DNA from: Candidatus Eiseniibacteriota bacterium
GTDB lineage: Bacteria > Eisenbacteria > RBG-16-71-46 > JASEGR01
Assembly (NCBI GenBank): GCA_030017955.1
Contig: JASEGR010000003.1
Span: 6,508-70,507, forward strand
Direction: 5' to 3'
Length of the DNA stretch: 64,000 nt
The notes beneath the pieces were generated by a model. It had not been told where the DNA came from. It did no database searches and saw only the letters and a list, made by a program, of their open reading frames with translations. Made by a program: the position numbers and the translations under genes. This document shows, in pieces, positions 2,150 to 55,203 of this stretch. The first letter of the stretch is position 1. Every line of letters starts with the position of its first letter.

Positions 2150-3361
2150 GTGCCGACGACATTTGTTTGGAAAGGAAAAACATTTTCCGGCCAGCAGGCA
2201 AAGGGAGAACTCACATTTGAGACGAAAGCGGAGCTCACGGGTTACCTGAGAAGAAAGAAGATAGTTGCCACTTCGGTGACCGAGAAAAAGGGAGAAAGAA
2301 GATGGCGTTTGAGGCGAAGGAAAGGCGTCACGACAAAGGACCTCGCCGTTTTCACCCGGCAGTTGGCGACGATGATTAACTCCGGTCTTCCCATATCGCA
2401 ATGCCTCGACATCCTGTCGAAACAGAGCGATAAGGGACCGTTCAGGGAGATGACCAGACAGGTTCTTCATGACGTTGAAGCCGGGTCATCGCTGGCCGAG
2501 GCGATGGGAAAGCACAAAACCTTCTTCGATGATTTGTACATAAATCTCGTAGAGGTTGGAGAGGCGAGTGGAGCGCTTGATCAGATGTTCACAAGGCTTT
2601 CAGGATATCTTGAGAAATCAGCGGCGCTCAAGAGAAAAGTAAAAAGTGCAATGACTTATCCTGTCATGGTGACAGCGGTAGCCCTGGGAGCGAGCTGCTT
2701 CATGTTGGTTTTCATAGTGCCTACTTTTTCCAGGATATTCATTGAGTTCGGAGGTCAGCTTCCGCTTCCCACCAGGATTGTCATCGGCTTGTCCAACTTC
2801 CTGCAAAAATTCTGGTGGGCTCTTGGAGTCTTTGTCTTTCTTCTTGCCGTCGGCTTCAAGCAGGCAAAGAAGTCAAAAGGAGCAAGAGAGTTTATTGACA
2901 GACTCAAACTCAAAGTTCCGGTCTTCGGTGATGTCTTGAGAAAGGCTTCGGTTGCGAGATTCACAAGAACTCTGGGGACTCTCGTCACGAGCGGCGTACC
3001 GATTCTGAAGGGACTTGAGATTACAGCCAAGGTGGCAGGCAACAAGGTCATAGAGAATGCAGTCCTTGCTACCAGAGCGAGCGTCAAGGAAGGCGAGACG
3101 ATATCAAGCCCGCTTGCGGAGTCCGGAGCGTTTCCGCCAATGGTGGTCAAGATGATAAACGTCGGAGAAGAAACCGGCGCGCTCGACGCCATGCTCAACA
3201 AGGTCGCTGATTTCTACGAAGATGAAGTCTGGGCCGCCGTTGAAGGGCTTACGGCAGTGATCGAGCCGGCAATGATCGTTGTCATGGGCCTTCTGGTTGG
3301 AGGAATGCTTGTTTCGATGTATTTGCCTATGTTCAAACTTGTAACGGTGATTTCGGGATGA
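2150..3361 (+). CDS. pilC: Type IV pilus inner-membrane platform protein PilC (GspF family)
   Basis: 403 aa with a duplicated GspF-type domain (motifs like RQLATMINSGLPI... and ...TRTLGTLVTSGVPIL) and transmembrane segments. It follows pilT. Confidence 0.85.
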   Translation: MPTTFVWKGKTFSGQQAKGELTFETKAELTGYLRRKKIVATSVTEKKGERRWRLRRRKGVTTKDLAVFTRQLATMINSGLPISQCLDILSKQSDKGPFREMTRQVLHDVEAGSSLAEAMGKHKTFFDDLYINLVEVGEASGALDQMFTRLSGYLEKSAALKRKVKSAMTYPVMVTAVALGASCFMLVFIVPTFSRIFIEFGGQLPLPTRIVIGLSNFLQKFWWALGVFVFLLAVGFKQAKKSKGAREFIDRLKLKVPVFGDVLRKASVARFTRTLGTLVTSGVPILKGLEITAKVAGNKVIENAVLATRASVKEGETISSPLAESGAFPPMVVKMINVGEETGALDAMLNKVADFYEDEVWAAVEGLTAVIEPAMIVVMGLLVGGMLVSMYLPMFKLVTVISG

Positions 3362-23687: not shown

Positions 23688-24701
23688 TTGAAGCTTATTC
23701 ACGACATATGGAAGAGGGCCAGGGAGAAGCACGCGAGGATTGCTCTTCCTGAGTCGGAGGACGAAAGGACGCTCAGCGCCATCAGCGAAGTCAGAGAGAG
23801 GGACCTCGCTGAAATCGTGCTAGTTGGCGACGGGAAGAAAATTGCAGGAAGAGTGGCTCAGGCAGGTATCGACCCAGCGTCTATTGAGATTATCGATCTT
23901 TCTTCGGAAGAATCGTACGAGAAATACCTGAAGCTAATGTTGGACCACGGCGCCCGTGGGAGAATTTGGGAGAAAGAAGTTCCCGAGCTCGCAAGGAATC
24001 CTCTTTTTGTTTCTGCACTCCTCTTGGACACGTTCCAAGTGGACGGCGTCGTGGCAGGGGTGAATACAAAATCATCAGATGTCATTCGTGCAGGTTTGAA
24101 ACTTATTGGTACTAAAGAACCTAACGGCCTAGTTTCAAGTTTCATGTTAATGATCTTGCCTGAGGGAGGACAAAACCCGGAGAGGGTGCTCCTGTTTTCG
24201 GATTGTGCCGTTGTTCCCGAGCCGACTCCGGAGGGACTTGCAACCATAGCCTTCTCATCTGCCCTGAGTTTCAGAGCAGTAGTTGGTGAAGAGCCCAGGG
24301 TTGCAATGCTTTCTTTTTCGACAAAGGGCAGCGCGTCTCATCCGCGAACGGATAAGGTGAGGGAAGCAACAGCCATCGCAAGGGACCGTCATCCGGACCT
24401 CGCCATAGACGGCGAGTTTCAGGCAGATGCTGCGCTCGTCCCGTCTGTGTGCAGGACGAAGGCCCCCGGCAGTGTTCTGAAGGGCGATGCCAACGTCTTG
24501 GTCTTCCCTGATCTTGACAGTGGAAACATAGCTTATAAGCTTGTGGAAAGACTTGCAGGTGCAAGGGCCTATGGCCCAATACTTCAAGGTCTCAAGAGGC
24601 CTCTGAATGACCTTTCACGCGGTGCAGATTCCGACGCAATAGTCAACGTGATAGCAATAACTGCTCTTCAGAAGGAGATAGTCAGAAGTGCCGACCTATG
24701 A
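23688..24701 (+). CDS. pta: Phosphate acetyl/butyryl-transferase (Pta family)
   Basis: 337 aa. The N-terminus [14 protein letters not shown] and the C-terminal ...[25 protein letters not shown] are Pta/PTA_PTB family-type segments. Confidence 0.7.
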
Positions 24702-24951
24702 GTACGAATGCCCCCGGTGCGGGCGCATGTTTGAATTGTTTACGTCCATGCTTGATGAGAAGGAAAAGCGATGTCCAAAATGCAGGGGAATCGGGAAGAA
24801 GCTTCCTGGGTCGGGAGCGGGGTTTATATTCAAGGGCAGCGGATTCTACTCGACAGACTATAGAAGCGAGAAATATCACAAGGAGAAAGAAAAGGAAAAG
24901 GGACCGTTGAAGGAGACGAAATCAGAAAAGAAAAAGAAATTAGACAAGTAG
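24688..24951 (+). CDS. FmdB-family zinc-ribbon protein
   Basis: GTG start. [12 protein letters not shown]...RCPKCRG carries the CxxC-N19-CxxC FmdB motif. The C-terminus is a KEKEK low-complexity tail. Confidence 0.75.
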
Positions 24952-26333
24952 AGAATAGCCTGAGGTCGGCCCTTGAGCCGTCAGCCGTTCTTTCGTCTCG
25001 GGAGGAAAGGATCTGCTATTCGTTTGATGCAACGACACTGTCCCGCCTGCCCGACCTCGTAGCACTTCCTTCCACAACTGAAGATGTACAGGCAATTCTG
25101 AGGATTTGCCGGAAGTACAGAGTCCCAGTCACTCCCAGAGGGGCCGGAACCGGCATGAGCGGAGGTTCCGTGCCAATCGAGGGCGGCGTTGTGGTCTCGA
25201 TGGAAAGGATGAACAGCATTCTCTCGCTTTGTCCAGAGGAAAACAAGGTGACCGTCGGACCTGGACTGATAAACGGAGAACTGCAAAAAGTGCTGATGGA
25301 GCGGGGACATTTCTTCCCGCCAGACCCGTCGAGCATGGATTTCTCAAGCATCGGGGGAAATGTTGCACTCAACGCAAGCGGCCCGAGGTGCTTCAAGTAC
25401 GGCGCGACCAAACGCTACGTCGAGGCCTTCGAGTTCGTCACGATCGAGGGTGACGTCCTGGAGGTCGATGCGCGAAATCCCTTACCGGGATTGGGAGATA
25501 TGCTGTCGATTCTTGTGGGGAGCGAGGGCACGCTGGGAGTCCTTACCCGGCTTGATCTCAGGACGGTGCGCCTCCCCGAGATGACAACGTGTTTTCTGGC
25601 AAATTTCAAGGACTTCTCGCATGCAGGAGGAACGGTATCGGTGTTTCTTTCTCAGAAAGTGATCCCATCGGTCATCGAAATAATCGACGGGAATACCGTA
25701 AGATGCGTGGAGGAGTTCGCAAGGACAGGTCTGGCATCCGGCGATGGGACTTTGATGCTGGTTGAGGTTGACGGCCCGGAAGATGAGGTCAGAAGTGGAA
25801 GTTCTGCAGTCGAAGAGATTCTCCGGTCTTCGGCCACGTATGTCAGGAGGGCAGAGGAAAAGGGAGAGAGGGATAAGTTGTGGAAACTCAGGAAGTCGAT
25901 TTCTCCCTCACTTGCGAGGATCGGCCCGACCAAAATAAACGAGGATGTGTGTGTGCCGAGAACGAAAATTCCGGAGCTCGCCAGCGCAGTCGATAAAATG
26001 ATAAAGAAGTATGGATTGAAGATCTTTCTTTTCGGTCACGCCGGAGACGGGAACATTCACGTTAATATAATGACTGACAGGAGAAACCTTGATGAAATGA
26101 AGCGTGTAGAAGAGGCAGTGCGGGTTTTGTTTGACACCACGCTGTCCCTTGGAGGGACTCTCTCCGGGGAACATGGCATAGGTCTTACGAAGAAGGAATT
26201 TCTCAAGGACGAGGTTGGGGAATATGGTATGATGGCCTTCAGGAAAGTGAAAGACGCATTCGACCCGGCGGGAATGCTCAATCCAGGAAAGCTCCTTGAC
26301 TCAACCCGATTTGACAGGGGTTGCCACGTCTGA
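24921..26333 (+). CDS. FAD-binding oxidase (GlcD / D-lactate dehydrogenase family); start codon non-canonical (ATC 24921, ATT 24939 or CTG 24960); first ATG only at 25155
   Basis: The FAD-binding PCMH domain (PDLVALPSTTEDVQAILRICRKYRVPVTPRGAGTGMSGG) is encoded upstream of the ORF-track ATG at 25155. The frame is open from 24864 and contains no ATG/GTG/TTG before 25155. AAGGAG lies 5 nt before the ATC at 24921. Confidence 0.6.
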   Translation: MRKEKEIRQVENSLRSALEPSAVLSSREERICYSFDATTLSRLPDLVALPSTTEDVQAILRICRKYRVPVTPRGAGTGMSGGSVPIEGGVVVSMERMNSILSLCPEENKVTVGPGLINGELQKVLMERGHFFPPDPSSMDFSSIGGNVALNASGPRCFKYGATKRYVEAFEFVTIEGDVLEVDARNPLPGLGDMLSILVGSEGTLGVLTRLDLRTVRLPEMTTCFLANFKDFSHAGGTVSVFLSQKVIPSVIEIIDGNTVRCVEEFARTGLASGDGTLMLVEVDGPEDEVRSGSSAVEEILRSSATYVRRAEEKGERDKLWKLRKSISPSLARIGPTKINEDVCVPRTKIPELASAVDKMIKKYGLKIFLFGHAGDGNIHVNIMTDRRNLDEMKRVEEAVRVLFDTTLSLGGTLSGEHGIGLTKKEFLKDEVGEYGMMAFRKVKDAFDPAGMLNPGKLLDSTRFDRGCHV

Positions 26334-31324: not shown

Positions 31325-31738
31325 ATGAAGAGAGGCAGAATACTTGTGGTGGACGACGAGGAGGACGTTCTAACAACACTGAGGCACGTTTTTGAGCTGA
31401 ACGGGTTCGATGTGCTGCTTGCAAGAAACGGAGCAGAGACTCTCGACATTGCCAGAAGGGAATCGCCGGATCTGATAGTCCTCGATGTGATGCTTCCGGG
31501 TCAAAATGGTTATGAGATCTCGAGGATTCTCAAGGAGGAGATTGAAAAAGGCAGTATCCGCCGCGACATGAAAATCGTCATCCTCACCGCCAGGAAACTG
31601 GATTCCAGCGAAAGGGAAGAGTTCATATCCACCTGGGCAAAGGCCGACGGGTACCTCTACAAGCCGTTCAAGATGGAGGAACTCATCGAGACTGTTGAAA
31701 CGCTTCTGGGCGTGAAGCCGGCCCACGCGAGAACTTAA
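31325..31738 (+). CDS. Stand-alone response regulator receiver protein (CheY-like)
   Basis: RILVVDDEEDVLTTL...DLIVLDVMLPGQNGYE...YLYKPF contains the conserved Asp pocket and the K(P)F motif. It has no output domain. Confidence 0.8.
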   Translation: MKRGRILVVDDEEDVLTTLRHVFELNGFDVLLARNGAETLDIARRESPDLIVLDVMLPGQNGYEISRILKEEIEKGSIRRDMKIVILTARKLDSSEREEFISTWAKADGYLYKPFKMEELIETVETLLGVKPAHART

Positions 31739-33465
31739 GGAGCCCGGGAGTATTGAAGAGGGTCAATATCAGGAAAGAGGTTGTCTCTTTCTTCGACGGA
31801 TGACAGGAAAGTGATTTCTTCCACGGAGAGCCTCTCCCCGTGTTTCAGTTTCTCCAGAAGTCTTATTAGACTTGTGAAGTCTTCGTAGTGCCTCTCAACT
31901 CTTCCTTCGGCGTAGTCTCTTGCACTCCAGGTCGAGATAAGAAACTGCCAGTCGGATGATTCCAGGAGAAGAAGTTCTCTTATTGCCTGTTTGAGAACCC
32001 TGTAGAACTCGCTTCGATCCGCCTGCCTGGCTTCCGCCGAGATTGAATTCATCGATAGTTCCGCCTCATGTATAAGCTTCCATGTCCATTCTGTCCAACT
32101 GTTCAGCCAGACATAATGAAACCCGCCTTCGCCCCACGATCCTTCCGGGAGAGAGACAACGGTCCGGGGAGGAAATTTCTCCAGATACCTGCGAGGGCTG
32201 AGCGCCTCGATCATGTCATCCTCATCGATTATTCTCAGCACAGTCTCAAACCACTGAACTCCTTCGAACCACCAATGGCCAAGAAGTTCGGTGTCATAGG
32301 GAGCACAGAGCATTCCTGGCGTTCCGAATCTCTTGTGGTGTCCGATCAGAGCTTCTTTCACAAGCGAAACGAAGTGCATAGCATTCTCAGGGATTCTTCC
32401 GAATGCATTCTCCGGCACGTAGGTTTCCTTTCTCGCAAGGTCACTCTTTGAGGCAGTCACCCTCCAGTACCGGATTCCTCCCGGAAAATGCTTCTTGTGA
32501 AACTCAAGATAGTTGCCGTCTCCCGGGTAGCCGCGCTCGCCGCTCCACACCTGCACTGCCGTTCTGGGGTCCCTGGTGAAAAACGAGATTGGCTCTCTCA
32601 GGTGAGGTTCAGATGGTGAAGAAACAAGGTAGGGGACAAGATGTGACCTCTCCTGAACAGGCTTCTCAACCATCTCCAGAATAGATCTTTCCCACATCTC
32701 CTTGAGCGCCTTGAACCTGTCAAGATAGACTCCAATCGCCTTCCCGCCTTTCAACATGTGGGAATCAACGAAGAAAAACTTGATGTGAGCCTCGCCCAGA
32801 AATTCTTCTACACCTCTTCTCTCAAAGGAAAGTTTGTCCGAAACCGGGGACGTCCAGTGGTAGCGGGGCCTGTAGGCACACTCTGGCAGCCAGATGCCTT
32901 TCGGTTCCTCACCGAAGTGTCTCATGTAGGAACTCTTTCCGACGAGGATCTGCGCCTTGACTGCCTCATCCGTGCCGAGAAGAGGGAGATAGCCGTGAGT
33001 CGCCGCCGAAGTAAGAATTTCGACGCTTCCCTCATCGCGGAGTCTGCGGAAACCTCCGATTATGTCTCCCGAATAACGTTCCCTGAAGCTCCTAAGGACA
33101 TTTTCGTAGAACCGCTCCCAAAAAGCCGTGAGCGCGTTGAACTCTGTCTTCCCCGAACCAGAAAAGTCCTTCCTGTCATTTCTCACTGCCTCCAGTCTGT
33201 TTTCGAGATATGCCGTGAACTCCTCTTTGAAGGCCTGACTTGAGAGCTGCTCGCAAAGGACTGGTGTCAAGCCGACTGCGCAGGAGGGATTCCCGCCCCT
33301 CTCGAGAATCGAGGTCAAGACATTGAGAAGAGGAATGTAAGATTCGGCGGATGCCTCATTCAGCCAGTCAGTGCCGTGAGGCCACCTGCCGTGCGACATA
33401 ACATACGGAATGTGTGAATGGAGGACGAAAGAGAAGTAGCCGAGAGGGTTCTTAGTTTTCAGAAT
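31735..33465 (-). CDS. Glycoside hydrolase family 57 1,4-alpha-glucan branching enzyme; non-canonical start (ATT 33465..33463 or CTG 33462..33460), first ATG at 33399
   Basis: The minus-strand frame is open from the TAA at 33515..33513. The GH57 N-terminal signature KNPLGYFSFVLHSHIPYV is encoded upstream of the first ATG (MSHGRWPHGTDWLNEASAESYIPLL...). There is no ATG/GTG/TTG in that stretch, and a GAAGGA Shine-Dalgarno lies 6 nt before the ATT. Confidence 0.75.
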   Translation of the reverse strand: MLKTKNPLGYFSFVLHSHIPYVMSHGRWPHGTDWLNEASAESYIPLLNVLTSILERGGNPSCAVGLTPVLCEQLSSQAFKEEFTAYLENRLEAVRNDRKDFSGSGKTEFNALTAFWERFYENVLRSFRERYSGDIIGGFRRLRDEGSVEILTSAATHGYLPLLGTDEAVKAQILVGKSSYMRHFGEEPKGIWLPECAYRPRYHWTSPVSDKLSFERRGVEEFLGEAHIKFFFVDSHMLKGGKAIGVYLDRFKALKEMWERSILEMVEKPVQERSHLVPYLVSSPSEPHLREPISFFTRDPRTAVQVWSGERGYPGDGNYLEFHKKHFPGGIRYWRVTASKSDLARKETYVPENAFGRIPENAMHFVSLVKEALIGHHKRFGTPGMLCAPYDTELLGHWWFEGVQWFETVLRIIDEDDMIEALSPRRYLEKFPPRTVVSLPEGSWGEGGFHYVWLNSWTEWTWKLIHEAELSMNSISAEARQADRSEFYRVLKQAIRELLLLESSDWQFLISTWSARDYAEGRVERHYEDFTSLIRLLEKLKHGERLSVEEITFLSSVEERDNLFPDIDPLQYSRAP

Positions 33466-33761
33466 CCGATGTCCTTCTTCGAGGGTTCGCCTGGGAAAAT
33501 CTTTATCGGCCCGTACTGTTCCTCAAACTTCTTTATGTTCGTGTCCAGGGCATTGAGAAGGGATTTCGCATGCTGGGGGGTCATCACGATTCTGGCGTAA
33601 ACCCTGCTCTTCGGAACGCCGGGCATGAATCTCGCAAAATCGATTATGAATTCGGAAGGCGAGTGCGCTATGAAGGCAATGTTGGAATAGATGCCTTCGG
33701 CCTCTTTCTCGCCAAGCTCCACGCTTATCTGCGGCTGCGGAATCGGCTGCTGTTTCTCCAT
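33459..33761 (-). CDS. DUF3467-family small protein
   Basis: 100 aa. The motif GIYSNIAFIAHSPSEFIIDFARF matches the DUF3467 G-x-Y-x-N...H...EF..DF signature. Its stop overlaps the putative ATT/CTG start of the downstream GH57 gene (ATTCTGA). Confidence 0.55.
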   Translation of the reverse strand: MEKQQPIPQPQISVELGEKEAEGIYSNIAFIAHSPSEFIIDFARFMPGVPKSRVYARIVMTPQHAKSLLNALDTNIKKFEEQYGPIKIFPGEPSKKDIGF

Positions 33762-34173: not shown

Positions 34174-36156
34174 GTGGAGACCAACATAACCTCAAAGGAT
34201 GCTCTTGAAGAGAAGTGTGTGCTTCTCAACAAGAAGCTCGAAGAACTTTCCCTGATATTCAGAATAATGAATCTTCTCCACAGCACCATGGAGGTCGAGA
34301 AGATTCTGAAAATCGCACTTACCTCAGTGACGACCGGGACGGCGCTTGGTTTCAACAGAGCTCTAATTTTCCTCGTTGACGAGGAAAACGGAGTCCTTGA
34401 GGGCAAGATGGGTGTCGGTCCGAAGAACATGGAAGAGGCAGCAAGAGTCTGGGAGGAGTTGGGAAAATCGTCTCTCCCGTTTGAGGCATTTGCGGCAATG
34501 GCTGCGGAAGATGCTCAGCTCGCAGAGAAAAGTCCTCTCACGAGCCTGGTGCAGACTCTGAGTTTCCCGCTCGAGAGGGATACTGACGTAACAGTTGATT
34601 CTCTTCTTGAGAAGCAGTGCGTGATCGTAAGGAATGCCCCGTTTGACCCGCGGGTAAGCGCAAGATTCAATGCGGTTTTCGAGTCGAGAGAGTTTCTGGT
34701 CACTCCAGTAGTGACAAAAGTGAAACCGGTGGGAGTCATCGTTGCGGACAACCATTACACTGGCAGGCCCATCCTGGAGGAGGACTGCGCGATCCTTTCC
34801 TCAGTCGCGCACCAGGTAGGATTGGCGCTCGACAACGCCAGAACATACGCCGACGTAAAAAGACGACTTTCGGAAATCTCAACACTCCAGGAGATGGGGA
34901 AGAAGATCATCTCAATGATGGATTTGAGGAGCGAGCTGGTCACTGTCGCAAAGGTCTCGTCCACGGTGCTTGGTGCAAGAGGGAGCGTCATCTGGCTTAC
35001 CCAGAACGAGGATGAGCTCACGGCCATCGCGAGATTCGCCGAGAAGGACAGCAGCGAACTGGAATCTGCCATTCCGCTTCTTGAAGAGGCTGCCGCCTGG
35101 TCTGTCTCCGAGGGCACCCCTCTACTCGTAAGAAATTCTTCCGAAGATGAAAGGTTCTCCGGCTGGGAAAAACCCGGGTTCTCGTTTCTTGTCGTTCCGC
35201 TTGTCTCAAAAAGCCGCACGATAGGTGCGATAGCCGTTTACGGAAAAGAGAGACGGAACATCTTTGAGTCACCGACTTTCAACAGGAATGACGAGCAGTT
35301 CCTTACTATTCTTGCAGATGAAACCTCGGTCGCGGTTGAAAACGCCAGGCTGTTTGATGAGGTAAGGAGGAGTGAGGCAAGACTGAGGGAGACCCAGGCG
35401 CTTCTCCTTCACTCCGAGAAGCTGGCGGCTCTTGGTGAGATGAGCGCAAAGGTCGCCCACGAGATAAGGAATCCCCTGGCGTCAATTGGCGGTTTTGCCA
35501 GAAGGGCAGCCAAGAACATGGGAGAACAGGACCCGAACAGAGAATATCTTCAGGTAATCGTGAGAGAAACCGACCGGCTCGAGAGGATTCTGACGGAGCA
35601 ACTTCAGTTTGCCCAGCTTTCCAGACCGACCCTGAAGCTTGAAAACATGAATGCAATCATCCAGGAGACTCTCCAATTGATCTCGGATGACATTGCGAAG
35701 AAGAAGGCAAGACTTCTCAAGAAATTCTCGCTTGATCTTCCGAAGCTCCTTCTTGATGCGGACAAAATGAAGCAGGTCTTCCTGAACATATTTCAGAATG
35801 CCCTGGAGTTCATGCCGAAGGGGGGAAGGCTTAGAGTCGAAAGCAGTCTCACGCAGGCCGACGTGCTCGTGGAGATTGCCAACGACGGGCCAAAGATCCC
35901 CGGCGAGATGCTGGACAGGATCTTTGTTCCATTTGCGACGTCCAAGAAACACGGTTCCGGTCTTGGACTTGCCGTCGCGTATCAGATCGTACGGGAGCAC
36001 GGCGGAGAAATCAATGCCCGCAGCGAAGGCGACTGGAGCGCGATTTTCACTGTGAGCGTTCCCATCAAAGGCAATGAAGATAGAAGGAGGATGTCGGATA
36101 GACGGTCGTCAAACACCGACAGACGCGGGAGAATGAAGTGGATGAACCCGTCCTAG
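34174..36156 (+). CDS. Multi-GAF-domain sensor histidine kinase
   Basis: 660 aa with two or three GAF-like segments. HisKA SEKLAALGEMSAKVAHEIRNPLASIGGFA. HATPase_c (NDGPKIP, GSGLGLAVAYQIV). Confidence 0.8.
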   Translation: METNITSKDALEEKCVLLNKKLEELSLIFRIMNLLHSTMEVEKILKIALTSVTTGTALGFNRALIFLVDEENGVLEGKMGVGPKNMEEAARVWEELGKSSLPFEAFAAMAAEDAQLAEKSPLTSLVQTLSFPLERDTDVTVDSLLEKQCVIVRNAPFDPRVSARFNAVFESREFLVTPVVTKVKPVGVIVADNHYTGRPILEEDCAILSSVAHQVGLALDNARTYADVKRRLSEISTLQEMGKKIISMMDLRSELVTVAKVSSTVLGARGSVIWLTQNEDELTAIARFAEKDSSELESAIPLLEEAAAWSVSEGTPLLVRNSSEDERFSGWEKPGFSFLVVPLVSKSRTIGAIAVYGKERRNIFESPTFNRNDEQFLTILADETSVAVENARLFDEVRRSEARLRETQALLLHSEKLAALGEMSAKVAHEIRNPLASIGGFARRAAKNMGEQDPNREYLQVIVRETDRLERILTEQLQFAQLSRPTLKLENMNAIIQETLQLISDDIAKKKARLLKKFSLDLPKLLLDADKMKQVFLNIFQNALEFMPKGGRLRVESSLTQADVLVEIANDGPKIPGEMLDRIFVPFATSKKHGSGLGLAVAYQIVREHGGEINARSEGDWSAIFTVSVPIKGNEDRRRMSDRRSSNTDRRGRMKWMNPS

Positions 36157-41414: not shown

Positions 41415-42470
41415 ATGGCGGTGACCAAAGAGGAACTGAGCCGGCTGACGCAGGAAGTCTCCTGCGCAGGCTGAGCGGCAAAACTGGGTCCGGCGGACCT
41501 TTCGAAAGTCCTTAAGACAGTCCCAAAGCAGAAGGACAAGCGGCTCCTGGTCGGGCTTCACACTTTGGATGATGCCGGCGTCTACAAAATCGGGAAAGAC
41601 CTGGCTATTGTCCAAACAGTCGATTTCTTTCCGCCGGTCGTGGACGATCCGTATGACTTTGGGATGATAGCTGCGGCGAACGCCCTCAGTGATGTGTACG
41701 CCATGGGAGGAACTCCGCTCACTGCAATGAGCATAGTCTGCTTTCCGAGCGAAAGAAAGAATATCGGAGTCCTCGCAAGAATTCTGAAGGGCGGGACCGA
41801 CAAACTCAGGGAAGCAGGCACAGTGCTCGTAGGCGGTCATTCTGTGAAGGACAATGAGCTCAAATTCGGTTTTTCCGTCACAGGGACAGTCAATCCGAGG
41901 AAAATCGTGTCCAATGCCGGAGCCAAGCCGGGAGACGCTTTGATACTCACAAAGCCTCTCGGCACCGGTGTTCTCACAACTGCGCTCAAAATGGGAATCT
42001 TGTCGGAAAATGGCAGAAGAACGGTGACCCGTGTCATGTCGTCGCTCAATTCCACTGCTTCGAGATTGATGTGTAAGTTCGGCGCTGATTCCTGTACGGA
42101 CATCACGGGTTTCGGTCTCGGAGGCCATGCCTGGGAGATGGCACGGGCAAGCAAAGTGACTCTTAGATTCTATTCGGCAAAAATCCCGGTTCTTCCAGGA
42201 GTCCGCGAGCTTGTTGAGAAAAAGTCCGTTCCCGGCGGGACAATATCCAACAAGGAATTTCTTAAAAGAGACGTATTGATCCACAGCTCTGCGGCGGGGC
42301 TATCCCCTCTGATATTCTTTGACCCGCAAACCTCCGGCGGCCTCCTGATCAGCATCAGTCAGAAGCGGACAGAAGCTCTATTGAAAGAACTTCGAAAGAG
42401 CGGGATAAGGGACGCGGCGCTTGTCGGGGAAGTGGTGAGAAGAAAGAAGGCGCTGGTTGAGGTTTTCTAG
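41415..42470 (+). CDS. selD: Selenide, water dikinase (selenophosphate synthetase) SelD - selenoprotein with in-frame TGA (Sec) at 41472-41474
   Basis: The ATG at 41415 gives MAVTKEELSRLTQEVSCAG-U-AAKLGPADLSKVLKTV...LDDAGVYKIG, which aligns with E. coli SelD [24 protein letters not shown]...RDDAAVYDLG. The TGA falls exactly at catalytic Cys17 and the conserved Lys follows 3 residues later. The hairpin GGUCC-GGC-GGACC starts 12 nt after the UGA, which is SECIS-like. The ORF-track version (TTG 41565) lacks the essential N-terminal motif. Confidence 0.8.
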
Positions 42471-42654
42471 CAGCGAGTGCGTGGAAGGGGGTTCCGGAAT
42501 AGAGGTTTTCTCAGTGTCTTCTGCGATTGGCCGGGAGCGAATGGGCTCTGGTGGGCCCCGAGGACTTCAAATCCTTAAGTCGGGCGCCAATACCGTCCGG
42601 GGTGGGTTCGATTCCCACGCGTTCCCGCCATCTCGTTCGTGGTCACAGCAAGGC

Positions 42655-45669: not shown

Positions 45670-46818
45670 TTGCCATCTGATTCATCCCTGGGACTCTATC
45701 TCCACATTCCATTCTGCAGAAAGAAGTGCAGCTACTGTTCGTTCATGTCAGTAGTTCCACAAGATGACCTTCTGCGCAGGTTTGCGGCTTGTCTCAAACG
45801 TGAGATTGATCTCAACCGGGATCTTCTCTCTCAGAGGAAGATTGCGACGGTCTATGTCGGCGGCGGAACTCCGGGCGTTCTCGGTGAGCGTCTCCTCGAT
45901 ATTATCCGGTGTCTTTCCGGGAACTTTGATCTAAGCGATATTGTCGAATTCACAGTCGAGCTCAATCCTGAATCTTCGCCAGTCGAGCTCCTCAGAGGAA
46001 TCAGAAAACTCGGGGTAAACAGAGTGAGCATCGGAGTTCAATCATTCCAGGATTCCCTGCTCTCCACGCTTGGCAGGATTCACACCCCAGACATGGCGAG
46101 GACAGCTTACTCGCGGGCGAGGGAAGCCGGATTCCAGAACGTCTCCATCGACCTAATGGCCGGAATCCCTGGCCAGAATCCTGAGCTGCTGAAAGAAGAT
46201 CTGGAACAAGCGGTCTCGCTGCTGCCCGAGCACATATCGTACTACCTTCTTACGCCCGAGAGCATGACACCGCTCTCTCATGCCATTACATCAGGGTATG
46301 CCCATCTCCCGGCCGACTCTCTCGCCAGAAGAATGCTTCTCCATGTTTCGAAGTTTCTGAAACAGAATGACTATGAAAGATACGAGACATCCAACTTCGC
46401 CAGACCAGCGTTCGAGTCGCGGCATAATATAAATTACTGGAAAAGGGGCGAGTACCTTGGGCTAGGGCCGTCTGCCTGTTCTCATCTGTCCGGGAAGAGA
46501 TGGAGGAACAATCCAGACCTGGAGAAATATCTTTCCTCTTTGGAAGATTCGAGAGTTCCAATGGTTGACGAGGAAGTGCTGACAAGCCGCGAGATTCTAA
46601 CAGAGAGCTTCATGCTCGGCTTGAGAATGAAAGAGGGCATCCCTCTTGAATCGCTAAGAGAAACTATCCCTCCTGAAAAGAATGAATCTCTTATGCTGCT
46701 TGTGTCATCTCTTTCCGAACAAGGGCTTCTCAGTCAAAAGGGAGGCAATCTTTCCATAACTGAAGAAGGGCTCCCGGTCTCAGATTCCATAATCGTTGAG
46801 CTTGTTTCCTCACTGTGA
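45661..46818 (+). CDS. hemW: Radical SAM heme chaperone HemW (HemN-like, oxygen-independent coproporphyrinogen III oxidase family)
   Basis: GTG start. LYLHIPFCRKKCSYCSF carries the CxxxCxxC radical-SAM motif. The C-terminal HemN_C-like domain is present. The lepA-hemW neighbourhood is typical. Confidence 0.85.
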   Translation: MRGLPSDSSLGLYLHIPFCRKKCSYCSFMSVVPQDDLLRRFAACLKREIDLNRDLLSQRKIATVYVGGGTPGVLGERLLDIIRCLSGNFDLSDIVEFTVELNPESSPVELLRGIRKLGVNRVSIGVQSFQDSLLSTLGRIHTPDMARTAYSRAREAGFQNVSIDLMAGIPGQNPELLKEDLEQAVSLLPEHISYYLLTPESMTPLSHAITSGYAHLPADSLARRMLLHVSKFLKQNDYERYETSNFARPAFESRHNINYWKRGEYLGLGPSACSHLSGKRWRNNPDLEKYLSSLEDSRVPMVDEEVLTSREILTESFMLGLRMKEGIPLESLRETIPPEKNESLMLLVSSLSEQGLLSQKGGNLSITEEGLPVSDSIIVELVSSL

Positions 46819-47535
46819 GTTTTGCTTCCTTCCTACCGGCATCATACCTAATGGCTGTTCTTCTTCCGGCATATTCAGAACCTTCTTCGTTTTGTCATCA
46901 TCAAAGGCCCCGATGAATACTGTTCCCAACTCTAGCGAGATTGCCTGCAAATAGACATTCTGGGCCGCGCAGCCAACTTCCATGTGCGCGTATCTTGTGC
47001 CTCTCTCCCCATATTTCACAGTTGTTCGTTGATAAACTGCTGTGAATACTATGACTGCAGCGGCATCTTTAACCAAAGACTGGCGAACAACAACGTTGCA
47101 TAGATCCGCTCTTCTATCTCCTTCCATCACTTCTATCAGTTCGCGCCCGTGGGGCTTGTACTTGTAAACGCCACGTGAAAGGTCGGTCACATTGCCTGCC
47201 ACAATATAGAGTTCAAGCGGGTACAGAGCTCCAGCAGAAGGAGATGTTCTGAAGCTTCTCGCTGAATCTGTTATTCCCTGAGCTGCCCACAGAAGCTGTG
47301 ATACTTCAGCTAGTGTCAGTGGTTCATCGTTGTAACCTCTGACCGACCTTCTCTCAAGCAGAGCTTTTTCCACCGAGGTTTTGCCATCGTACTTGGGTTG
47401 AGGGAGTTTTATTGCTTGCTGGTTCAAAACGGATTTGTGCCTCATTTTTTGGGGTGCCAATGTAACAGCCAACACCACCCCTGCAGACATCAGAATTACA
47501 ACTGATATCAAAGCGTACTTCTTCGCTCTGGTCAT
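46810..47535 (-). CDS. SagB/ThcOx-type dehydrogenase (nitroreductase-fold) with N-terminal membrane anchor
   Basis: 241 aa with an N-terminal TM helix. RSVRGY...LSQLLWAAQG...GALYPLELYIV...AHMEVGCAAQNVYLQAISLELGTVFIGAFDD match the SagB-type/nitroreductase family signatures. Confidence 0.65.
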   Translation of the reverse strand: MTRAKKYALISVVILMSAGVVLAVTLAPQKMRHKSVLNQQAIKLPQPKYDGKTSVEKALLERRSVRGYNDEPLTLAEVSQLLWAAQGITDSARSFRTSPSAGALYPLELYIVAGNVTDLSRGVYKYKPHGRELIEVMEGDRRADLCNVVVRQSLVKDAAAVIVFTAVYQRTTVKYGERGTRYAHMEVGCAAQNVYLQAISLELGTVFIGAFDDDKTKKVLNMPEEEQPLGMMPVGRKQNSQ

Positions 47536-47795
47536 TGTTTGTTCTCCTCGCGTATTGGACTAAACTCTTAGGCGTTTGATCTTTTCCACCCAATTCCGTT
47601 CCAACGAATAGCGGCAAGGATACCATTCCCAAGTTAGAGGATATTAAGAGACACGGCAAGTGGAAATACGGGGCAGTGCATCTTATTCATCGAGCGTGTG
47701 CCGGGCGAAAAGATACCTATCTCCCCAAGCCGTGGGAAACTCCCCTTTACCTGTGCTTGCTTGAAGGAGGCGCGTAGAAGTGATATTCTTAAGTA

Positions 47796-54045: not shown

Positions 54046-55203
54046 TTGAAAATCCTGAAGAGGCTCGAGAAAGCCAACAAGGCACTTTTTTCTCTCATCC
54101 TCTCTTTGTCTCTCCGTCCCAGAGGAGAAAAGGAAATTCCGGGCAGGGATGAGATCAGAAGGATCCTGCTCGTGAGACATGACGATAGACTCGGGAATCT
54201 AGTTATGCTAACGCCTCTTCTTTCGGCGCTAAGAAGCCATCTTCCTCACGCCAGGGTGACCATGCTCGTCGGAAAAAGATATTCAGACCTGTTCAAGCAT
54301 GACCGGCGAATTGACGAGCTCCTCATCTTCACCCGTGGACTGGGGCCGAGGAACCTCCTGGGTATTCTCCGCCTGGCCATCAGGCTCAGGAAAGAAGAAT
54401 TCGATATTGCCCTCGATCTCTCCCACGGCCATTCGTTTTCGCTCACGAATGCGCTTCTCATCCGGTTTTCAAAGTCCATGGTGAGGATTGGCTACAAGAG
54501 GGGGCTAAGTAACAGATTCATTGATAATGAGCTACGGATGTCTGTTCACGTGACACATGAAATCAATATCTTCCTCGGCCTTCTGAGGACAGTGATAGAA
54601 GTGCCGGTGGATCTGGAGCCCAAAATCGCTCTTCGTGACGAGGACCTTCGCGGCGGGAGGGAACTTCTTCGCAGAATCGGCTTCCGCGGCCGGGAGGCAG
54701 TAGTTGGAATTCATCCGGGCGGAAGAGGAGACAAGCTCTGGCCCATCCAGAATTTCCTGAGAGTTGCCGAGCTCCTGAAGGAAAGTGGAGCGGAGGTCGT
54801 CTTCTTCCTGGGTAATCCTGAGAGAAGGCTGATTTCGATGGCGCACGCGGAAGGAAGATTCAAGATTCTCAAGGGCTCATCCACCTCCGCTGAGGCAGAA
54901 TCGCAGTCCGGCTCGCCTGATTCCTCCTCCTTCGGGGCGTTTCAGCCTTCAGGCGTGATTGAGCTGGCCGCCCTCATTAAGAACTGTTCTGTCTTTCTGT
55001 CAGGGGACTGCGGGCCGATGCATCTTGCAGCCGGGCTGAAGGTTCCAACTGTTACAATCTTTCTCGTTGAGAACTATGGGCGATATGGCTACGCCGGTGA
55101 GATGAACAGGATACTGCACGGCCCCGGTGCGGTGAATCCTGAAACAGCCGCAGATTGCGTGGAAGAACTCCTGAAACTCAGTGAGGAGAAACGCTCTTCG
55201 TGA
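54046..55203 (+). CDS. Glycosyltransferase family 9 (ADP-heptose:LPS heptosyltransferase-like)
   Basis: RILLVRHDDRLGNLVMLTPLLSALRS (the GT9 N-terminal pattern) and C-terminal ...FLSGDCGPMHLAAGLKVPTVTIF. Confidence 0.75.
   Translation: MKILKRLEKANKALFSLILSLSLRPRGEKEIPGRDEIRRILLVRHDDRLGNLVMLTPLLSALRSHLPHARVTMLVGKRYSDLFKHDRRIDELLIFTRGLGPRNLLGILRLAIRLRKEEFDIALDLSHGHSFSLTNALLIRFSKSMVRIGYKRGLSNRFIDNELRMSVHVTHEINIFLGLLRTVIEVPVDLEPKIALRDEDLRGGRELLRRIGFRGREAVVGIHPGGRGDKLWPIQNFLRVAELLKESGAEVVFFLGNPERRLISMAHAEGRFKILKGSSTSAEAESQSGSPDSSSFGAFQPSGVIELAALIKNCSVFLSGDCGPMHLAAGLKVPTVTIFLVENYGRYGYAGEMNRILHGPGAVNPETAADCVEELLKLSEEKRSS

Follow-up and report, generated by a model that had tools for sequence, protein, structure and literature searches.

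A GH57 branching-enzyme-type gene without a canonical start codon at a stop/start junction in a Candidatus Eisenbacteria genome

We analyzed a 64,000-nucleotide stretch of DNA (the window) from a contig that is part of a metagenome-assembled genome (MAG) labeled Candidatus Eisenbacteria bacterium, in which a GH57 alpha-glucan branching-enzyme-type gene has no canonical start codon. The gene is the second cistron of a two-gene operon on the minus strand, directly downstream of a DUF3467 gene (33459..33761; 100 amino acids; PF11950, E=2.4e-28) whose product ends in ...KDIGF, followed by a TGA stop at 33461-33459. Read from a CTG at 33460..33462, the GH57 coding sequence occupies 31735..33462, stop included, and encodes 575 amino acids with the domains PF03065 and PF09210 (BE_C). 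The CTG overlaps the DUF3467 stop as cTGA (33462-33459), as first reported for this DNA, a -4 stop/start overlap between co-directional genes of the kind by which coupled pairs are recognized. The products of both genes, and of ten others in the window, are identical to deposited NCBI proteins (P0001 for GH57, P0241 for DUF3467). P0001 is the best database match of the GH57 protein, with 100% identity and 575 amino acids, and its N-terminus, MKTKNPLGYF, reads the CTG as Met; this start is already used in public annotation and is not new. What the present analysis adds is the constraint from an overlapping phenylalanine (Phe) codon, the context of NTGA junctions and of GTG and TTG starts, and a second start-less gene, which is mis-annotated.

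The first in-frame ATG of the GH57 open reading frame (ORF) lies on the minus strand at 33397..33399, at the Met of ...PYVMSHG..., inside the conserved domain, where it is not a usable start. That this is the first ATG, and that no in-frame ATG, GTG or TTG precedes it, had been stated in a first-pass annotation and is borne out by the sequence and the ORF list. The same annotation closed the frame upstream at a TAA (33515-33513) and gave the open stretch as 114 nt; the real stop is a TGA at 33523..33525, and the start-less leader is 123 nt, or 41 codons, long. The leader peptide it reported did contain the GH57 N-terminal motif and had lost one glutamate (E): the correct peptide, GTVRADKDFPRRTLEEGHRILKTKNPLGYFSFVLHSHIPYV, reads ...TLEEGHRILK.... 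Between this stop and the motif, the ATT at 33463..33465 and the CTG one codon downstream, both correctly located before, are the only codons in the GH57 frame that differ from ATG by a single base as NTG or ATN. A Shine-Dalgarno (SD)-like GAAGGA at 33472..33477 stands 6 nt before the ATT and 9 nt before the CTG, as had been said. It had also been called strong, and on this point we differ: its duplex with the anti-SD has an energy of -5.9 kcal/mol for both candidates, which is moderate and at the weak end of a window range in which many genes reach -8 to -17. The two spacings both fall inside the range of the window's canonical genes and offer no choice between ATT and CTG. By itself, a run of 41 codons without a canonical start is not improbable ((58/61)^41, about 0.13); the stretch is significant because homology puts the N-terminus there, not because of its length.

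The GH57 protein matches PF03065 with E=9.4e-35 (120.8 bits, cut-off 21.2) over profile positions 1-291, the first of which falls on residue 12 of the translation begun at the ATT. It matches BE_C (DUF1957), PF09210, with E=3.2e-24 (85.7 bits, cut-off 25), and the NCBI name of the product is DUF1957 domain-containing protein. The alignment to PF03065, proposed earlier as a check of the N-terminal boundary, shows that the first ATG comes only after the conserved strand that carries the HSH motif. Branching enzymes of known structure (5wu7_A, 3n8t_A and 1ufa_A in the PDB) match at E=1e-125 to 1e-137; their residue 3 aligns to G28/Y29 of the stop-to-stop translation, whose first Met is residue 42, 13-14 residues later. 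We also examined 80 homologous genome loci, locating the motif [LIV][LIV]HxHxP[FYW] in 77, with sequence upstream of it in 76. A canonical start was found 6-16 codons upstream of the VLHSHIPY-type motif in 76/76 loci, ATG in about nine in ten and GTG or TTG in the rest. In the window, the distances to the HSH motif are 12 codons for the CTG and 13 for the ATT, and the 14 codons before the motif contain no ATG, GTG or TTG, whichever frame is read. An indel therefore cannot restore a normal GH57 start, and we rejected this explanation. Pfam, the PDB alignments, the 76 loci and the NCBI start all support the earlier claim that the GH57 gene must start at ATT 33465 or CTG 33462, at the DUF3467 stop.

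The segments FVLHSHIPYV, WLPECAYRP and APYDTELLGHWWFEG have identical or almost identical counterparts in the corresponding blocks of 5wu7_A and 3n8t_A; the WLPECAY and DxELxGHWW blocks are those that we take to carry the catalytic Glu and Asp. Like the GH57 branching enzymes of P. horikoshii (5wu7), T. kodakarensis (3n8t) and T. thermophilus (1ufa/3p0b), which it resembles over its full length, the window protein has an N-terminal GYxxFVLHxHIPYV strand and a C-terminal BE_C, whereas it is only about 50% identical to them and has 6-7 extra residues before the GY. With an intact 575-codon ORF, and with its conserved blocks and BE_C aligned to solved structures, the protein looks functional, and it is predicted to be of the branching-enzyme type, with alpha-1,6 branching activity.

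The DUF3467 frame restricts what the junction can contain. An xGF motif near the DUF3467 C-terminus is invariant in 120/120 best homologs, and its Phe codon in the window is the TTC at 33464-33462, so that the third base of the ATT is the middle base of this codon. The invariant Phe fixes 33463 as T and leaves C and T as the choices at 33462. With a TTY codon required in DUF3467, the codon at -4 is therefore limited to CTG and TTG, which makes the junction a clear case from nature of an overlapping frame that restricts the choice of start codon. The exchange of TTG and CTG at 33462 is the only change that is silent in DUF3467, and a single transition separates TTGA from CTGA. An ATG in place of the ATT would turn the Phe into Cys (TGC), and the earlier suggestion that an ATG had been misread as ATT is thus unlikely.

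Stop/start overlaps of this geometry recur across the window. Eleven other co-directional junctions have a -4 NTGA overlap formed by ATG, GTG or TTG, and three more have a -1 overlap; the TTGA type is seen three times, and a -7 overlap is much rarer than -4. Judged from the eleven -4 overlaps, the operons of the window would be tightly coupled. By our own reading of the start list, about 53% of window genes start with ATG, about 25% with GTG and about 22% with TTG, for a non-ATG share of about 47%, and predicted proteins with TTG or GTG starts were identical to the deposited NCBI proteins in 10/10 cases tested. Positions with GTG or TTG starts or NTGA junctions include 3358, 4686, 7717, 11628, 23208, 29202, 30323, 52309, 55200, 56318 and 57439. 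The DUF3467-GH57 junction shares its co-directional, 4-nt NTGA geometry with the ATGA, GTGA and TTGA overlaps of termination-reinitiation (PMC6728339, PMC10666635); it differs from them in its first base, C, which makes the one non-canonical NTG, and its coupling is putative.

A second conserved enzyme in the window also lacks a canonical start. A GlcD-like FAD-linked oxidase gene on the plus strand (24921..26333; 24864..26333 from stop to stop) goes 97 codons without an ATG, GTG or TTG, and its first ATG, at 25155 after GAGTG, falls inside FAD_binding_4. This domain begins at residue 63 of the stop-to-stop translation, and residue 39 of PDB 9qgz_A aligns to residue 62. All GlcD homologs carry 20-50 more residues, including ...EDRICYSFDAT, and the window encodes ...EERICYSFDAT... 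in frame, upstream of ATG 25155. The candidate starts are ATC 24921, ATT 24939 and CTG 24960, of which ATC 24921 has the best SD (AAGGAG at 24910-15, with a 5-nt spacer). The probable start region is overlapped by the 3' end of a small FmdB/Zn_ribbon_8 gene on the plus strand (24688..24951; GTG start, TAG stop). Across 24864-24960 a single canonical codon occurs, a TTG, and it belongs to the FmdB frame. A complete Eiseniibacteriota genome and a Joint Genome Institute (JGI) contig (L084, L085) have the same gene order as the window, RsmD-CoaD-FmdB-GlcD-aconitase-Obg, and in both of them GlcD starts at a GTG inside the FmdB 3' end. The deposited protein, P0121 (428 amino acids), starts at an internal CTG (25047), is without the conserved N-terminal segment and is truncated by about 30-40 residues. 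When we ran the stop-to-stop translations of the ten ORFs with the longest start-less leaders through Pfam, only the GlcD-like gene was positive. The idea, raised in the first-pass annotation, that this genome tolerates rare initiation codons gains support from this second case, and our observations fit tolerance of near-cognate starts in this genome, at least for starts located inside an upstream ORF or at its end.

The FmdB tail has features of its own. At 24910-24942 on the plus strand, an A-rich stretch (GAA AAG AAA AAG AAA) stands 10 nt downstream of AAGGAG. GlcD is read in the -1 frame with respect to FmdB, and the FmdB stop is out of phase with the homologous TAG that relatives have (ATT AGx). 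These A-runs may have been the site of a -1 slip or of an indel. An indel is not needed to account for the GlcD-like gene, as the GlcD frame is open there and its N-terminal composition is rich in K and R, like that of the relatives.

In the comparison of orthologous loci, which had been recommended, the order DUF3467-GH57 recurs, all the starts are canonical and no locus is close (best 55-56% identity). Among the 80 genome loci, DUF3467 lies upstream of GH57 in L010 only, and the other cases were found from the DUF3467 side. In L010 (DUF3467 at 2658-2966), a 32-nt spacer leads to a GH57 gene that starts with ATG. In L087-L089 (DUF3467 of L087 at 3001-3330), the spacer is 228 nt, the start is again ATG and the GH57 protein is P0005, among the five closest homologs. 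In L086 and L092 (DUF3467 of L086 at 1404-1802, ending in ...GIGF), the two genes have a -1 overlap with an ATG, at the junction GGCTTCTGATGAAG; here the GH57 gene opens MKAAPGRLLLTLHAHLPYV, and its product begins MK... like that of the window read from the CTG. The same DUF3467-GH57 junction on one relative's contig reads TTCTGATG. The DUF3467 genes of L090 and L091 have different neighbors, not GH57. At least four separate lineages have a gene for DUF3467, a family of unknown function, immediately before a GH57 branching-enzyme gene, and this adjacency hints at a functional link. A tightly coupled DUF3467-GH57 junction is thus found outside this genome as well; what sets this genome apart is only the C with which its start codon begins. 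The non-canonical codon itself is not conserved in the orthologs, since all 76 loci are canonical and L010, L086 and L087 use ATG.

From these observations we infer the choice of codon, the coupling and the level of expression. On balance, and by a narrow preference, we favor near-cognate initiation at CUG 33462-33460 coupled to termination and re-initiation. A ribosome that ends DUF3467 at UGA 33461-59 would already be placed at the overlapping CUG (cUGA, 4 nt) and could re-initiate there with initiator tRNA, which would amount to translational coupling, and the moderate SD GAAGGA 9 nt upstream would assist. A T->C transition, silent in the DUF3467 frame, would turn a TTG start into the CTG. 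The very frequent use of GUG and UUG in this genome makes it evident that a start codon mismatched at its first base is readily accepted. Both CUG and AUU might contribute to GH57 initiation. The RNA around the junction is unstructured (z=+1.49), with no Rfam element found there, and de novo initiation is therefore also possible. Near-cognate start codons and coupling at NTGA overlaps are both known, and the case falls within this category. As in E. coli infC and pcnB, which have AUU starts, a conserved functional gene lacks a canonical start and a near-cognate codon stands behind an SD, and inefficient initiation would be tolerated or exploited (bioRxiv 10.1101/063800; PMC2268962). The infC AUU, however, is conserved across bacteria and serves IF3 (initiation factor 3) autoregulation, whereas the non-canonical state of GH57 is unique to this genome; moreover, unlike in infC and pcnB, the GH57 codon may be CUG and overlaps an upstream stop.

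Several points weigh against initiation at the CUG. In E. coli reporters, CUG and AUU initiate at about 1-2% of the level of AUG (bioRxiv 10.1101/063800), a value of about 0.3% is quoted for ATT (PMC10666635), and IF3 disfavors non-canonical starts, also during re-initiation (PMC2268962). With near-cognate starts weak and IF3 acting against them, GH57 expression would therefore be low, unless the initiation checkpoint of this organism is laxer. Any TGA stop in this phase automatically creates an NTG at -4, whose presence alone is no evidence. The SD spacing of the ATT is equally acceptable, and the best-SD candidate of the GlcD-like gene is AUC, not CUG. The choice of CTG by NCBI may simply show what its pipeline allows; for the GlcD-like gene, an internal, truncating CTG was chosen. 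No close GH57 relative was found: the best non-self homologs are 55-56% identical, and P0001 sits in a cluster of one. The population has no second assembly, and conservation of the CTG finds no support from relatives above 56% identity. A search for a second copy of the junction was negative, with the exact protein absent from the contig index and a degenerate 32-mer unmatched in JGI metagenome contigs.

The most serious competitor, which we regard as possible and clearly the less probable, is that the SD directs de novo initiation to AUU 33465-33463, in the manner of infC and pcnB, while the CUG plays no role and expression is low or IF3-sensitive. The order AAGGA, 6 nt, ATT is an ordinary spacing for the window, although it fits the CTG too. 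E. coli, moreover, has AUU as its one confirmed non-canonical start (bioRxiv 10.1101/063800); of the GlcD-like candidates, AUC 24921 alone has a good SD, and an AUU follows at 24939; and the T at 33463 is fixed by the Phe codon, making the ATT a genuine base call and not a damaged ATG. However, a -7 overlap, as AUU would produce, is uncommon next to -4, and the N-termini of the homologs lie slightly nearer to the CTG position, with L086 beginning MK... as the CTG product does. A consensus or strain artefact, in which the true codon at 33462-33460 is TTG and the MAG carries a T->C miscall or a minority allele, has its attractions: a single transition, silent in DUF3467, would restore a TTGA junction such as the three others in the window, all homologs have canonical starts, and with only one assembly of the population the base calls have no second copy for comparison. 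We nonetheless hold it improbable. It would require start-codon hits in two of about 57 genes in the same 64 kb, and as random consensus errors in otherwise intact genes these are very unlikely; because a second conserved window gene also has no canonical start, random base error is an unlikely cause. All other ORFs are intact, the ten tested proteins equal the deposited ones, and the version of the artefact in which ATG became ATT is excluded by the Phe constraint.

Two further explanations would do without a working start. GH57 might have lost its start recently and be a young pseudogene or essentially untranslated, given that it has no canonical start and that no relative shares this state. 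Against such a loss, which we think quite unlikely, the 575-codon ORF is intact, HSHIPY, WLPECAYRP and APYDTELLGHWWFEG are conserved relative to the crystallized enzymes, the SD and the stop/start junction have been kept, and a second gene in the same state suggests tolerance rather than decay. Alternatively, a -1 frameshift from DUF3467 into the GH57 frame would yield a fusion protein that needs no GH57 start. In favor of it, GH57 is read in the -1 frame with respect to DUF3467, and this frame stays open over the 20 codons that precede the stop. The heptamer U UUC CCA at 33499-33493 has the form X XXY YYZ. In the GlcD-like case, too, the downstream frame is the -1 frame, and G AAA AAG stands 10 nt after an AAGGAG. 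Yet a heptamer of the CCA type is a poor slippery site, which weighs against a frameshift, and no stable structure lies downstream. None of the 120 best GH57 homologs is fused to DUF3467 (0/120; they have 564-610 amino acids, with PF03065 and PF09210 only), and relatives keep the two genes separate, by a spacer of 32 or 228 nt or at a -1 overlap. We consider such a fusion highly improbable.

Whichever of ATT and CTG is used, ORF finders limited to ATG, GTG and TTG cut 21 residues from the GH57 enzyme, including its first strand and HxH motif. The deposited record rescues GH57 via the CTG, and the same pipeline truncates the GlcD-like oxidase. The GH57 gene would also be an example of a conserved enzyme that persists although its start, at a stop/start junction, is near-cognate. 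A broader proposal, which we put forward only tentatively and think doubtful, is that selection on start codons is relaxed throughout the lineage, with a few percent of genes, conserved enzymes included, starting at CUG, AUU or AUC, preferably in or at the end of an upstream ORF. If so, an altered IF3, initiator tRNA or 16S checkpoint, or a heavy reliance on re-initiation, would be implied, and standard gene callers would truncate or miss such genes, as with the GlcD-like gene. Should the genome hold more of them, the lineage would be useful for the study of start-codon stringency; two cases in 64 kb are a lead only. We found no literature on start-codon usage in Eisenbacteria.

The DUF3467-GH57 pair is flanked by a GAF/histidine-kinase gene at 34174, divergent from it, and by a response regulator ending at 31738, convergent with it. 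Nearly all genes of the window (1-64000) are on the plus strand, and the clear exceptions on the minus strand are this pair (31735-33761) and a gene at 46810-47559. We considered SelD (41417-42470, plus strand) as a further start-less gene and rejected it: its in-frame TGA at 41472-41474, within ...SCAG-U-AAKLGPADL..., probably encodes selenocysteine (Sec). A tRNA-Sec gene (42533-42630, plus strand) lies directly downstream of SelD. A GT9 heptosyltransferase-like gene (54046-55203, plus strand) has an ambiguous start. The TTG at 54046, which NCBI uses, is plausible, and the N-termini of PDB proteins align near ATT 54136/ATC 54154, about 30 codons after it; the N-terminal extension of this protein may be real, or the gene may have a further non-canonical start.

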